From Promethearchaeum syntrophicum (GTDB taxonomy: Archaea > Asgardarchaeota > Lokiarchaeia > Sigyniarchaeales > Promethearchaeaceae), in the NCBI RefSeq assembly GCF_008000775.2, contig NZ_CP042905.2, positions 1,620,001 through 1,652,000 on the forward strand: 32,000 bases of DNA. The letters are read 5' to 3'. The notes below the pieces were generated by a model. That model was not told the origin of the DNA, made no database searches, and saw only the letters and a list, made by a program, of their open reading frames with translations. Position numbers and translations under genes: made by a program. How positions within the stretch are numbered: position 1 is the first letter of the stretch; the number at the start of each line of letters is the position of its first letter. Shown here in pieces: positions 455 to 21,652 of this stretch.

Positions 455-1771
455 TTAATTGAATATTTCAATTCCATCTTCGGTTACAATAAAGGTTTTT
501 TCAAATTGACTGACATAAGCACCTTTTTGCTCTCTTAATTCATAATGCTTATGCAATTTGCCCGCAGTAGTTAGTTCTCGTAAAGCCATTTTTCCAGTGC
601 GAAATTCTTTCAATAATTCACGTGTGGAAAACGGAAGAGTTTTCTTTATGTTTGCGATCCACCCAATTACTTGGCGAGTTATTTTCATACGGATTGGAAC
701 ACGCTCAGAATTTAAATCATATTCATAGATATTGCAATTTGTTCCATTGTGAATATTTCCTAGCCCAGTAGATGCAAAACATTCTAACGCAAATACATCC
801 CCTTCTTCGAAAACATCTCCGCTGGAAATTCCTACACTAGGGATGGATTTAAAGCCATGTACTTGCCATTTCTCTAAAGAATGTCCGCGTAAATCTTTGA
901 TTGGATTATACCCAAAACCTCTGATTATTTTGGCAGTCGTCTTTCCCACTTCAATTGTTTTAACTCCGGGTTTAATTATAGATAATCCTTTCATAACTGC
1001 GGTTTCTACAGCAGTAACTAAATTTGCTGTGGCTGGATCTTGATTAAAGGAAACAGAAAATGCGCCATCTGCAACGTATCCCTCCACTGATACTCCAATA
1101 TCAACTTTTACCACATCTCCTTCTTTTATAACTGATTCATCATTTGGAGGGCTTGAGTAATGAGCTGCAATTTCATTGATACAAACATTCGTTGGGAATC
1201 CGATTTCCCCCCCAAGTTCTATAAGTTTACTTTCAGTTTGTTCACAAATATCAAGTAACTTTGCCCCGATCTTGACTTTTGGTTTAATAAATTTTATTAC
1301 CTGTTTATGGATTTCCCCCGCTTTTTTAAACGAATCATAACGCAATTTTTTTTCTTTTTCTTCTTCTTCTTTTTGGGTTTTTTCTTCTTCAGTTAATTCC
1401 TTTTCTGCCTTTTCTTCCTTCTCTTCTTTCTTTACTTTTTTAGTTTGATTTTTAGGTTTTTGAACCTGTTTTTTAGAAGAGGTTTTACTTACTCCTTTCT
1501 TAACTACAGCTTTTGAAGTTTTCGCTGTTGATGGCTTTTTAACTACGCTTTTTGTAGTTTTTTTAGTTGAAGTTTTTTTTGAAATTTTTTTTGTAGTTTT
1601 TTTGGAAGTTTTCTTCTTGACAGACTCTTTAATTACTTTTTTAGTTGAACTCTTTGCTGGTTTTTTAACATCTTTCTTAGAAAGCTTCTTTGTTGTCTTC
1701 TTAGTAGTCTTTTTTTTTGTAGACTTCTTTACTGCTTTACTCGATTTTTTAGGAGGAGTCATTATTTTCAT
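455..1771 (-). CDS. map: Methionine aminopeptidase, type 2 (archaeal/eukaryotic class), with a ~140 aa Lys/Ser/Thr-rich then Glu/Lys-rich N-terminal extension
   Basis: The C-terminal ~296 aa reads as a pita-bread MetAP: FKKAGEIHKQV, FPTNVCINEIAAHYSP, and the metal ligands D..D in VKVDIGVSVEGYVADG, H in LRGHSLEKW, E in FALECFAS and E in SQFEKTFIV. The type-2 helical insert is present (RMKITRQVIGWIANIKKTLPFSTRELL...LRELTTAGKLHKHYEL). I prefer the start at M44 (1771) or M47 (1762). The first 43 codons of the tracked ORF are hydrophobic junk and reach into the start of the divergent gene at 1890. Confidence 0.9.
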   Translation of the reverse strand: MKIMTPPKKSSKAVKKSTKKKTTKKTTKKLSKKDVKKPAKSSTKKVIKESVKKKTSKKTTKKISKKTSTKKTTKSVVKKPSTAKTSKAVVKKGVSKTSSKKQVQKPKNQTKKVKKEEKEEKAEKELTEEEKTQKEEEEKEKKLRYDSFKKAGEIHKQVIKFIKPKVKIGAKLLDICEQTESKLIELGGEIGFPTNVCINEIAAHYSSPPNDESVIKEGDVVKVDIGVSVEGYVADGAFSVSFNQDPATANLVTAVETAVMKGLSIIKPGVKTIEVGKTTAKIIRGFGYNPIKDLRGHSLEKWQVHGFKSIPSVGISSGDVFEEGDVFALECFASTGLGNIHNGTNCNIYEYDLNSERVPIRMKITRQVIGWIANIKKTLPFSTRELLKEFRTGKMALRELTTAGKLHKHYELREQKGAYVSQFEKTFIVTEDGIEIFN

Positions 1772-1874
1772 TATTTTTAAAGAACGATAAGATTTTAAAT
1801 TTCGCACAAAAGTAATAAACAAAATTAATAAACAGAACAATACAAAATATAAATTAATTATTAATTTTGGATAG

Positions 1875-2285
<411 letters not shown>

Positions 2286-18747: not shown

Positions 18748-20076
18748 ATGTTAGGGGGAAAAGGGCGCTCGCTTGTTGTAATGGGGACATTTTTTCTAAC
18801 CTCTGGATTCGGCTTCAAAAATTGGTACATGATCATAATCGGGGTATTTTTTCTATTCTCTACATTCATTAGTCGACCGGCTTTTGAGTCATCGCAAAAT
18901 ATCGAGGAACTAAAGGTAACACGAACGCTAGATAATACTCGAATTTTTAGGGATGATTTTATGCACATTGTGGTCACTATCGAGAATACTGGGGGCAATC
19001 GGTTCGATTTCTTAGACATTTTTGATGAATTTCCTGTAGGTGCTTTCCGATTAGTTACAGGAGAAAACTACATTAGTACTCGAATCGATCCGCATAAAAC
19101 AATTAAGTTTTCATATATCCTTGCTCCACGGGTTCGTGGAGAATTCGAAATTGGCCCTCTTAATGTAACCATTCATGATAGGTTGGGTTTTAATGCCGAG
19201 AATCGAATCGTTCCAGACTCAATTACGGACATAATTATCTATCCTCCATATGAATTGATTAAAAGGTTAGAAATCATGGGAGCTCGCCGGGCGATAAGTA
19301 TGAGTTTCGGAGTTCACCAGACGAAAGTGAAAGGCACTGGAACAGACCTGAGAACCTTGCGCGCCTACGTCGAAGGTGATCAATACAGGCATATAGATTG
19401 GAAAGCGAGTATGCGCGTACAGAAGTTGATTGTTCGCGAGTTTGAAACCGAGAGAAACGTGTCGACCGTAATTTTAATTGATTCCAGCGAATCGATGGCA
19501 GGTGGTGCCGTAGATTACACAAAATTTGAAATGTCGGTAAAATCTGCAATGTTTTTAGCAAAAATTGCCATGGAACAACAAGATAAGGTAGGTATTGCTA
19601 CATTTAGTGACCGTAAAAGCTTTAGATGGCTTCGACCTTCAACTAAAAGTACGCATTTTTATGATATTATTTCATTCTTAGGGGAGGTTAGCCCTCGAGG
19701 GAGCAAAGAGATATTCTGGTCAATGGAAGAGTTTTCACGTCTCTATACCAAGCGTAGTTTGGTTTTTCTAATTACGGATTTGGAAATCGCAGCAATAGAT
19801 GTTATGGCTGCGGTTAGAAAATTAAGAACATACGGACATGCAGTTGTGATAGTTAGTCCTTTTAGCCCATGGTTCGAAATTCATGAATTAGAACTTACTC
19901 CAAGCGATAAAGCTCTCGCTGAGGCGATATCAGAAGAAATGATGTTACATATCTTGACTATCAAGAAAGACTGTCAGAAATTTGCAGTACCTGTAATTTC
20001 TGTTGCTCCGGATGACATGTTAAACGTGATTGCAAATGAGTATCAAGAAGCTAAGCGTGTAGGGAGGGCAGATTAA
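18748..20076 (+). CDS. DUF58 family protein (two N-terminal TMs, Ig-like domain, vWA-like domain with intact MIDAS)
   Basis: TM pair SLVVMGTFFLTSGFGF / WYMIIIGVFFLFSTFI. The DUF58 hallmark is LRAYVEGDQYRHIDWKASMRVQKLIVREFETERN. It is followed by the MIDAS DxSxS motif in VILIDSSESMAGG (~19469-19500). CAGGAG lies upstream of the ATG. Confidence 0.85.
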   Translation: MLGGKGRSLVVMGTFFLTSGFGFKNWYMIIIGVFFLFSTFISRPAFESSQNIEELKVTRTLDNTRIFRDDFMHIVVTIENTGGNRFDFLDIFDEFPVGAFRLVTGENYISTRIDPHKTIKFSYILAPRVRGEFEIGPLNVTIHDRLGFNAENRIVPDSITDIIIYPPYELIKRLEIMGARRAISMSFGVHQTKVKGTGTDLRTLRAYVEGDQYRHIDWKASMRVQKLIVREFETERNVSTVILIDSSESMAGGAVDYTKFEMSVKSAMFLAKIAMEQQDKVGIATFSDRKSFRWLRPSTKSTHFYDIISFLGEVSPRGSKEIFWSMEEFSRLYTKRSLVFLITDLEIAAIDVMAAVRKLRTYGHAVVIVSPFSPWFEIHELELTPSDKALAEAISEEMMLHILTIKKDCQKFAVPVISVAPDDMLNVIANEYQEAKRVGRAD

Positions 20077-20077
20077 G

Positions 20078-21652
20078 ATGGCACGATCAAACTGGATGTT
20101 ACCGACCTTACGAGGTGTTTCCATTGGCTTTTTGGTAATTTTAATCCTAATGCTTAATACGATTTATGAAGGGGATATCTTTAATATATTTTCAGTATTC
20201 GGTTTAATTGGTCAGCTCAGAGACATCTTATCATTTTTAATATTTATTGCAGTTTATTATGTTATATTCGGCATCGCATCGGGGGTTGGAATGCTTTTCT
20301 CATTATTTGGTTCGACGTATTTTAACTATAGTTACTTTGTTAATCTTACAAATGAAATAGTGCATAATGTAATTGGTGGATGGTTTTACTTACCTGATCC
20401 AACAACTGGTAATGCAATGATTGCTCCTACCGTTTCTGAGGCACTTGCAGGAGCGCAAGCAGTATATGGACTTATTAGTATGGATCTTTATCTTGTAATA
20501 CTTCAGATAATAGTTGCAATCATGTTCTTTTATGCGTTAAGGGCTTCATTTACCAGTAATCCAACAGATAGCATTACTACGGTTACTTTAATCAACTTAG
20601 TAATTATAATTCCTTTATTTTTCAACCAACTAAATAATGTTCTTTCTATATTCGTTCCAACAGGCAATGTTGGTTTCTTAAATAATATATTAAGCCATGA
20701 TTTACTCAAAGATGCGATATTTGTGAATGTAATTAATTTGAATTTCGGGGAATTTCTCATATCCCCTATTTTCTTAGTAGCTTTGGTTATGTTTTTGTAT
20801 TTGGAGTTTGTTTTCCAAGTTTCATATATAGATAAAGTAACCGCACCTTCAATTGAAAGGGAAGAGCGTTTAACGCGGCAGATTGAGGTAATGAAGGTTG
20901 AATCCTTGAAAGCGATATCAAGGATTAAAGCGGTAGAGGAAAAGAAGCGAGAAAAGAAGTTATTACAGCAAGCTAGTATGACACCAGAAGAAATGGAGAT
21001 AGAAAAAGAGAAGAAAAAACGGTTATCTTTACGTACTATGATGTCTGAAAAAGGACAAGCCGGATTTTCATTTATTTCTGAGTTAATTGAGAAGAAAAAA
21101 TTAGAAAAAGAAGAAGAACGCATGATGGAAGCCATGAAGGATACAAGAAAGGTTTCCAACTATTTAGAAAAACTTTTTAAGCAAGATCCTGAAGCAAAGA
21201 ATACATTAACTGCAAAAACTTCCGCTCCAAGTTCTACTCGCTTAATAGTATCAACATTTATAAGTTTGGGATCTCGAATTTTTCTAATAATTTTGCTCAC
21301 TTGGGCATGCGTTCATCCCTTTGCAATATATTCGATAATTTCACCTGATTCTATTGCATCCAGCGTCGAGCTTCAGACTTATGAAGCAGTTTTATCCATT
21401 TTAATTCCATTCTTGCTGGTAATTCCCTTTATTTCAACAATAATCAAAATTTCAAAGCATGCAAAATTAGAGGAAATTTTAAGACTTGAAGAAATTCGAC
21501 GTTCGGGACTAACCGAAGAAGAATTAAAAGAGTTACAAGCAAAACGTGCCAAGGCTGCTACTCAAGAAACCCAATTAGCGCGAGACCAAGATGCAGCTGC
21601 CGATCAAGCAAAAAAAACGGCGCAAAATGCACCAACTGGACAAAATCCATAA
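20078..21652 (+). CDS. Polytopic membrane protein with a long charged coiled-coil loop and a charged C-terminal tail (unknown family)
   Basis: The start is 1 nt after the DUF58 stop, with GGGAGGG at 20062-20068. There are about 6 TMs in aa 1-250. A ~120 aa E/K-rich segment follows (EREERLTRQIEVMKVESLKAISRIKAVEEKKREKK...), then two more TMs, then the tail EEILRLEEIRRSGLTEEELKELQAKRAKAATQE.... Confidence 0.7.
   Translation: MARSNWMLPTLRGVSIGFLVILILMLNTIYEGDIFNIFSVFGLIGQLRDILSFLIFIAVYYVIFGIASGVGMLFSLFGSTYFNYSYFVNLTNEIVHNVIGGWFYLPDPTTGNAMIAPTVSEALAGAQAVYGLISMDLYLVILQIIVAIMFFYALRASFTSNPTDSITTVTLINLVIIIPLFFNQLNNVLSIFVPTGNVGFLNNILSHDLLKDAIFVNVINLNFGEFLISPIFLVALVMFLYLEFVFQVSYIDKVTAPSIEREERLTRQIEVMKVESLKAISRIKAVEEKKREKKLLQQASMTPEEMEIEKEKKKRLSLRTMMSEKGQAGFSFISELIEKKKLEKEEERMMEAMKDTRKVSNYLEKLFKQDPEAKNTLTAKTSAPSSTRLIVSTFISLGSRIFLIILLTWACVHPFAIYSIISPDSIASSVELQTYEAVLSILIPFLLVIPFISTIIKISKHAKLEEILRLEEIRRSGLTEEELKELQAKRAKAATQETQLARDQDAAADQAKKTAQNAPTGQNP

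Follow-up and report, generated by a model that had tools for sequence, protein, structure and literature searches.

The window analysed here is a stretch of 32,000 nucleotides (nt) from Promethearchaeum syntrophicum (contig NZ_CP042905.2, positions 1,620,001 to 1,652,000). Its reverse strand carries a gene whose product, on the best reading of the profile, alignment and structure-model matches, is a type II methionine aminopeptidase (MetAP), probably an active one, and represents the Asgard-specific "long" paralogue of this enzyme (hereafter MetAP2). The catalytic domain is preceded by an N-terminal extension of 142 residues, a long lysine/threonine/serine-rich (K/T/S) tract followed by a short glutamate/lysine-rich (E/K) segment, and the comparison of related species shows that this extension is coding and under purifying selection. 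By analogy with eukaryotic MetAP2, we lean, with some reserve, towards the polybasic tail being a polycationic tether to ribosomal RNA (rRNA) or to the ribosome.

A charged N-terminal extension sets eukaryotic MetAP2 apart from the prokaryotic enzymes; it helps to hold the protein at the tunnel exit and is tied to the regulation of eIF2. In the eukaryotic protein (MAP2), poly-basic and poly-acidic N-terminal stretches alternate, in line with the polylysine and acidic blocks named in the sequence-only reading of the window, and they were modelled against the rRNA expansion segment ES27L, with the poly-Lys stretches near the core in contact with it; removal of the extension abolishes the interaction with ES27L and lowers the occupancy of the tunnel exit (PMC10808355). 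A literature search combining MetAP2 or methionine aminopeptidase with Asgard retrieved no description of an extended Asgard MetAP2.

Catalytic domain and coding status of the extension

The profile TIGR00501 (type II methionyl aminopeptidases, peptidase family M24A) matched residues 145-436 of the protein over positions 5-292 of 295, with 272 bits against a cut-off of 222.65, and PF00557 of Pfam was matched as well. In the phmmer searches of PDB sequences, residues 147-435 aligned end to end with residues 5-291 of the 295-residue MetAP of Pyrococcus furiosus (174 bits), and residues 125-429 with residues 149-464 of human MetAP2 (149 bits). All five metal-ligand columns hold Asp, Asp, His, Glu and Glu (D82, D93, H153, E187 and E280 of P. 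furiosus). Among 30 sequences of the long clade, the single departure from this set is one Asp in the E187 column.

The structural comparison gave the same ranking. In an AlphaFold2 model built from an alignment of 65 sequences and numbered according to the 435-residue form of the protein, the predicted local distance difference test score (pLDDT) of the catalytic domain is mostly above 94, with one 10-residue block at 86. The domain has the pita-bread fold, with the helical insert of about 60 residues by which type II enzymes differ from type I. The top Foldseek match was the P. furiosus enzyme (1xgs), with a template modelling (TM) score of 0.93, a root-mean-square deviation of 2.0 over 296 columns and 36% identity. 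Human MetAP2 ranked lower (TM 0.72-0.78, 30% identity), and type I enzymes fitted the model far worse (TMq 0.48-0.50 vs 0.64 for 1xgs). The catalytic domain is thus nearer to Pyrococcus than to human by both bits and TM score. The archaeal enzyme, with its same domain size and insert pattern, is the best match in sequence and in structure, in agreement with the sequence-only reading, which had described a complete domain of archaeal size with five ligands and the type 2 insert.

The same reading had considered the extension of particular note in an Asgard-related genome, and the genome is an Asgard one. QEE16206.1 of Candidatus Prometheoarchaeum syntrophicum shares 98% identity with the protein, the nearest named relatives come from metagenome-assembled genomes of Promethearchaeota/Lokiarchaeota, and NCBI lists the protein only as "type II methionyl aminopeptidase". 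The genome is closed, with 4.32 Mb and 31% guanine plus cytosine (GC).

The longest version of the open reading frame (ORF) spans 455..1900 (-), and the realistic starts are ATG 1771, which gives 438 amino acids, and ATG 1762, which gives 435. The form reaching 1900 is disfavoured, because it overlaps a divergent Roadblock/LC7 gene and lies upstream of a conserved TATA-like box. This box, TTTAAAAT, starts 28 nt upstream of ATG 1771. It is part of a 42-nt block, AATTTAAAATCTTATCGTTCTTT(A/T)(A/T)AAA(T/A)AATGAAAATAATG (AATTTAAAATCTTATCGTTCTTTAAAAATAATGAAAATAATG), which is kept in all four species of the genus, bar three positions in one of them. The ATG is conserved in the four species as well, and the sequence upstream of the block diverges. 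Since 28 nt is the spacing expected of an archaeal TATA box, the messenger RNA would be leaderless or have a very short leader and include the whole extension. A scan for bacterial promoters and terminators was uninformative for an archaeon.

The reading frame of the extension behaves as a coding one. Its 426 nt hold no stop codon in their own frame, and none of 20,000 mononucleotide shuffles kept the frame open. The two alternative sense frames contain 10 and 15 stops, the three antisense frames 6, 2 and 17. Orthologues differ in length by whole codons only, and the frame is open in every one of them. The ratio of nonsynonymous to synonymous substitution rates (dN/dS; Nei-Gojobori method, four species of the genus, dS about 1) was 0.01-0.08 in the proximal acidic segment, 0.07-0.09 in the catalytic domain and 0.20-0.51 in the distal basic tract, the last values being approximate, as the protein-guided alignment of low-complexity sequence is ambiguous. 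The acidic segment is consequently as constrained as the catalytic domain.

These results bear directly on the possibility, raised with the sequence-only reading, that the K-rich region is untranslated and that translation starts at the TTG codon of Leu143 (nt 1343-1345), with a product of 296 residues and archaeal size. The TTG lies right at the domain boundary, as such a start would demand. On the contrary, the 29 codons upstream of it are under amino-acid constraint equal to that of the catalytic domain, the many indels between orthologues leave every frame open, the shuffles lose it, and it is the long form that has the conserved box and ATG at its 5′ end. Given the shuffles, the box with its ATG, the dN/dS values and the whole-codon indels, the internal start is very unlikely, to the point that we consider it hardly credible.

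The two parts of the extension differ in composition, as the sequence-only reading had noted in describing a Lys/Ser/Thr-rich region followed by a Glu/Lys-rich segment in front of the catalytic domain. Residues 1-113 include 46 K and no R, one E and one D, and 34 S and T together. The longest run of Lys is of three residues, with a recurring KK[TS][TS]KK pattern and no homopolymer or polylysine block. Residues 114-142 (KKEEKEEKAEKELTEEEKTQKEEEEKEKK) include 14 E and 10 K. The DNA of the basic tract holds imperfect repeats of 9, 12 and 39 nt, a pattern which would fit growth by slippage.

In the AlphaFold2 model, the distal tract has a pLDDT of 42-54 and no secondary structure, and residues 1-120 are mostly below 50; the disorder prediction proposed with the sequence-only reading thus gave a disordered tail. 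A single helix is predicted at residues 125-162 (in window numbering it starts at 128), continuous with the first helix of the catalytic domain. It begins right after the Thr of LTEEEK, and its part within the extension shows block means of 70 (residues 121-130) and 89 (residues 131-140). The motif ELTEEEK..EEEEKEK(K/Q)LR is kept across Lokiarchaeia in the alignment of the orthologues.

A likeness of the basic part to histone H1 tails had also been suggested, and it holds for composition only. No Pfam family matched the basic tail of the window protein at E values up to 1, and the tail of one orthologue (P0020) reached 31 bits with HC2, below the cut-off of 40. Membership in the histone H1/HC2 families was therefore rejected.

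Paralogues and spread of the charged extension

In each of the 41 genomes of the Lokiarchaeia order that were searched (41/41), two or more type II MetAP genes are present, one of the long and one of the short form. The short paralogue (for example at loci L022-L030) comprises about 300-330 amino acids, is tail-less and retains all five metal ligands. Eight short paralogues were examined, and they form one clade beside sequences labelled as DPANN archaea. Having two MetAPs in a single cell is generally portrayed as a feature of eukaryotes.

The unrooted tree of the catalytic domains is composed of three clans, that is, the eukaryotes (100% support), the generic archaea together with the Asgard short paralogues (98% in the Shimodaira-Hasegawa-like approximate likelihood ratio test, SH-aLRT), and the Asgard long clade (91%). 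The window protein falls in the last of these, apart from the eukaryotic clade. Proteins of 300-350 amino acids with 42-50% identity to human MetAP2 were considered as eukaryote-like archaeal enzymes and were discarded, as they fall inside the eukaryotic clade; one of them is labelled as a Streblomastix protein.

Among 109 complete homologues, the charged N-terminal extension is confined to the Asgard long clade. In each of the 89 rows of this clade, 12 or more additional charged residues are present, as a rule in an acidic stretch of the form ..TEEEK..EEEEKEK... The generic archaeal MetAPs, like that of P. furiosus, differ in that they start close to the catalytic domain, with at most seven preceding residues in 17 of the 19 and about 20 in the other two. 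This agrees with the expectation of the sequence-only reading that archaeal enzymes normally lack an extension; the window protein, with its 142 extra residues, falls apart from them in an Asgard-dominated clade.

A polybasic block, defined as at least 30 residues, was found in 30 of the 109 homologues, all of them within the long clade. The two modules therefore differ in their spread: as judged from the aligned homologues, the acidic one is clade-wide and the basic one is patchy and fast-changing. The polybasic block changed at least nine times on the tree, with four of the changes forced by well-supported branches. In the Promethearchaeum-level clade the tail is present in 11 out of 11 sequences, and within the genus the length of its poly-K part ranges from 75 to 115 residues.

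A metagenomic sub-clade within the long clade (P0068, P0071 and P0074-P0077) has a K/T/S tail of 66-122 amino acids which ends in ..KKVVKKK..EKEGP, with essentially no acidic block. Tails of this type indicate that the basic and acidic modules can occur independently.

The Arg at the apex of the type II insert shows a different distribution. It is found in 30 of 30 long-clade sequences, the window protein being one with this residue, in 15 of 15 generic archaeal MetAPs and in none of the eight short paralogues. The equivalent Arg of MAP2 is conserved (R395 in human) and stacks on H53 (PMC10808355).

Role and origin of the polybasic tail

A strict scan of the whole genome returned 22 ORFs with K/T/S tracts of 30-114 residues, the longest being the 114 residues of MetAP2. 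Most of the tailed proteins with known function are, by their Pfam or sequence assignments (table 1), components of translation, transcription, RNA decay or recombination. A RadA paralogue, assigned by sequence alone, has a K-rich C-terminal tail, and several orphan proteins carry K/T/S tracts too.

Several of the tailed proteins parallel Lys-rich appendages that are specific to eukaryotes. Lys-rich tails are also present in eukaryotes as the K-boxes of eIF2-beta and the N-terminal helices of aminoacyl-tRNA synthetases. The KKE/D domains of small nucleolar ribonucleoprotein (snoRNP) proteins are a further case of Lys-rich appended tails (PMC11528048). Similarly to KKE/D-type tails, those of this genome are disordered, dominated by Lys, often accompanied by acidic stretches and placed at the termini of RNA-handling proteins. 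Unlike them, they are rich in K/T/S rather than in K/E/D.

The likeness to eukaryotic MetAP2 (p67; human 1b6a/8ony and Chaetomium thermophilum 8onz) covers several levels. The type II pita-bread fold, the helical insert, the five ligands and the apex Arg are common to both, as are a long, disordered and highly charged N-terminal extension with basic and acidic segments, a helix directly before the catalytic domain (a predicted one in the window protein) and a great variation of the extension in length and sequence between species. The differences lie in the order and nature of the blocks. Here, a single 113-residue K/T/S tract is followed by a single 29-residue E/K segment without alternation, whereas in eukaryotic MetAP2 D/E blocks alternate with short K homopolymers, the longest of about 13 residues. 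In addition, the eukaryotic beta-insert (EVEIDGKTY) and DCSR insert are gaps in every Asgard sequence aligned. The eukaryote-like character claimed in the sequence-only reading thus stands as regards charge and the presence of basic and acidic parts; a Lys run longer than three residues and a homology signal above shuffled sequences (see below) were not found. A functional analogy with the eukaryotic extension can be regarded as well founded.

According to the tether that we tentatively prefer, the disordered polycation of about 110 residues would bind rRNA electrostatically and with low specificity. The enzyme would be concentrated on ribosomes or close to them, and the removal of the initiator Met would in this way stay co-translational, which is the same job as that assigned to the poly-Lys extension of eukaryotic MetAP2. 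The insert domain, with its apex Arg, may be what docks specifically at the tunnel exit. The E/K segment of about 29 residues, with its last 15 or so in the predicted helix, may act as a rigid stalk, serving as spacer and partial counter-charge. The evidence pointing to this role includes the same type of tail on many nucleic-acid-binding proteins of the genome, the eukaryotic precedent of poly-Lys modelled on ES27L (PMC10808355), and the ribosome-docking Arg, which is kept in the long clade and not in the short paralogues.

Several observations weigh against a tether. Many long-clade orthologues, for instance that of Lokiarchaeum ossiferum, keep the acidic part only, which means that the enzyme can dispense with the polybasic block in the course of evolution, and the constraint on the distal tract is known only approximately. 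K/T/S tracts are also found on a MoxR ATPase, an FKBP-like protein and an FHA-domain protein, and a ThiF/E1-like enzyme (assigned by sequence alone) has a K-rich C-terminal tail, all with no obvious nucleic-acid role. The tail may accordingly be a generic module for solubility, localisation or condensates. Furthermore, a study of Asgard rRNA expansion segments reports only supersized ES9 and ES39 and does not mention ES27, which leaves the partner of the eukaryotic extension without an identified counterpart here.

The main competing explanation is a tolerated expansion of low-complexity sequence, in which slippage in an AT-rich genome makes in-frame repeats rich in AAA, AAG and ACN grow at the termini, with the tail near-neutral and only the acidic helix of importance. 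The hypervariable length of the tail even within the genus, at least four to nine gains or losses on the tree, the imperfect repeats in the DNA, the tracts on 22 unrelated ORFs, the restriction of the uL30 tail to this genus and a distal dN/dS three to six times that of the rest of the protein are all as expected from such growth. Nevertheless, the distal ratio is still below 1 (0.2-0.5), with charge and composition kept while the sequence drifts, the tail is retained throughout the Promethearchaeum-level sequences, and nucleic-acid machinery accounts for most of the tailed proteins with a known function. The base composition also fails to account for the pattern: the MetAP2 tail is missing in the relatives of lowest GC (0.27-0.29) and present in those at GC 0.36-0.40. 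From genome to genome, the tails of different proteins vary independently of each other, and three genomes have an aIF2-gamma poly-K tail of 49-95 amino acids and no poly-K in MetAP2. AT-richness as the single driver was rejected on these grounds, and the expansion as a whole is considered a rather unlikely explanation, about half as credible as the tether. The earlier concern that such extensions might be common and compositionally trivial in this lineage is thereby upheld in its first half, since charged extensions are general in the long clade and 22 ORFs are tailed; triviality is contradicted by the missing relation to GC and the missing co-variation between proteins.

A different question is whether the Asgard charged appendage, together with the helix in front of the catalytic domain, is the direct ancestor of the eukaryotic MetAP2 extension, that is, homologous and not convergent. 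Both phmmer and MAFFT set ELTEEEK opposite RTTSEEKK of human MetAP2 (residues 149-156), just before the catalytic domain, and the long paralogue scores 149 bits against the human protein, compared with 116 bits for the short one. The branch with 98% SH-aLRT parts the generic archaea and short paralogues from the eukaryotes and the long clade. The latter two also group together when the M24B paralogues of this genome are used as outgroup, and in a published marker tree an Asgard order is sister to Eukarya for MetAP (PMC12395588). However, a profile of the eukaryotic pre-catalytic region ([WFY]R.T.EEKR.LER, the 'N-terminal helices', from 32 segments) performed on Lokiarchaeial segments no better than on composition-preserving shuffles; the observed score was reached, for instance, by 39/200 shuffles in the case of the window protein and by 167/200 in another. 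Sequences of Hodarchaeales type alone were marginal (5-16/200). The T-x-E-E match may merely reflect a helix N-cap, as the predicted helix starts right after the Thr. The equivalence of ELTEEEK and RTTSEEKK, persuasive in the pairwise and MAFFT alignments, was consequently dropped after the shuffle-controlled test.

The phylogeny and the inserts argue in the same direction. The long clade does not enclose the eukaryotes, the rooted tree has weak support (63), and branches of 2.6-3.4 substitutions per site lead to the outgroup. The M24B-rooted tree (this genome has no type I MetAP) places the root inside the generic archaea and, with such branches and support, is suggestive only. The eukaryotic beta-insert and DCSR insert are missing from the Asgard sequences, and poly-K is patchy in eukaryotes as well (10 of 27 cluster representatives); since it is patchy in Asgard archaea too, repeated independent gains are favoured. 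Taken by its parts, homology of the catalytic lineage with eukaryotic MetAP2 is plausible, a sister relation of the eukaryotes and the Asgard long clade is weakly indicated by the trees, and homology of the two extensions is unproven; direct descent of the eukaryotic extension from the Asgard one is judged improbable.

An equally improbable, wider scenario is that a pre-eukaryotic Asgard archaeon split Met excision between two paralogues and placed polycationic tails tethering to the ribosome or rRNA on one of them and on other components of translation and transcription, from which the eukaryotic MetAP2 extension, and perhaps other Lys-rich appendages, descended. In this scenario, the enlarged rRNA expansion segments of Lokiarchaeia may have evolved in concert with the Asgard tails.

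If the tether is correct, polycationic tethers of eukaryotic style can occur on ribosome-associated factors in Asgard archaea, among which eukaryotes have their closest cultured relatives, and Asgard MetAP2 would be a tractable prokaryotic system for testing the function of such tails. This bears on whether the co-translational recruitment of factors by charged disordered tails preceded eukaryogenesis or arose convergently. The genome-wide tails on aIF2-gamma, prolyl-tRNA synthetase, ribosomal proteins, RNA polymerase, the exosome and RadA may outweigh the case of MetAP2 in interest. If, on the other hand, the tails are neutral low-complexity growth, they are a caution against reading eukaryote-likeness from composition.

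Features, aIF2-gamma variants and the neighbouring gene

Table 1. Coordinates of the MetAP2 gene, its parts and the related features (positions in the window for the first six rows, in the genome for the others)
Feature	Coordinates	Strand	Remarks
CDS (coding sequence) of the long type II methionyl aminopeptidase paralogue	455..1771	(-)	stop codon 455-457
Catalytic pita-bread domain with type II helical insert	458..1345	(-)	residues 143-438; sequence and structure matches
Proximal acidic E/K segment	1346..1432	(-)	residues 114-142
Distal polybasic K/T/S-rich tract, predicted disordered	1433..1771	(-)	residues 1-113, net charge +44
TATA-like box	1792..1799	(-)	upstream of ATG 1771
Roadblock/LC7 gene (PF03259)	1890-2285	(+)	head-to-head with MetAP2, 118-bp spacer
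Short type II MetAP paralogue	1333186-1334055	(+)	33% identical; outside the window
uS3	694324-695289		K/T/S tail; Pfam
uL30	687142-687807		K/T/S tail; Pfam
aIF2-gamma	957386-958858		K/T/S tail; Pfam
ProRS (prolyl-tRNA synthetase)	829583-831148		K/T/S tail; Pfam
RNAP (RNA polymerase) A''/A'	3655732-3660187		K/T/S tails; A'' by Pfam, A' by sequence
Exosome Rrp41	19111-20157		K/T/S tail; Pfam
RadA	3503369-3504535		K/T/S tail; Pfam

The aIF2-gamma of a sister family (f3; loci L046-L058, e.g., L050 and L053) has no poly-K and carries instead an N-terminal extension of about 110 amino acids. Its sequence, LEDISGIGKATAE.., resembles a helix-hairpin-helix nucleic-acid-binding motif. Different appendages thus seem to share the same position on aIF2-gamma between families.

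Multiple in-frame stops were encountered within otherwise strong aIF2-gamma matches of several relatives, namely G019:C142:3480-4832 (7 stops), G033:C450:7029-8348 (6 TAA), G026:C43 and G032:C53, and a uL30 match (G012:C1:4174028-4174591) also holds multiple in-frame stops. Assembly errors, frameshifts, interrupted genes or read-through of the adjacent region could explain them.

No GTPase gene adjoins the Roadblock/LC7 gene in this window. Roadblock/LC7 adjoins MetAP2 in 12 of 20 loci, in two families of the order (L002-L004, L010, L012, L013 and L015-L019 among them).

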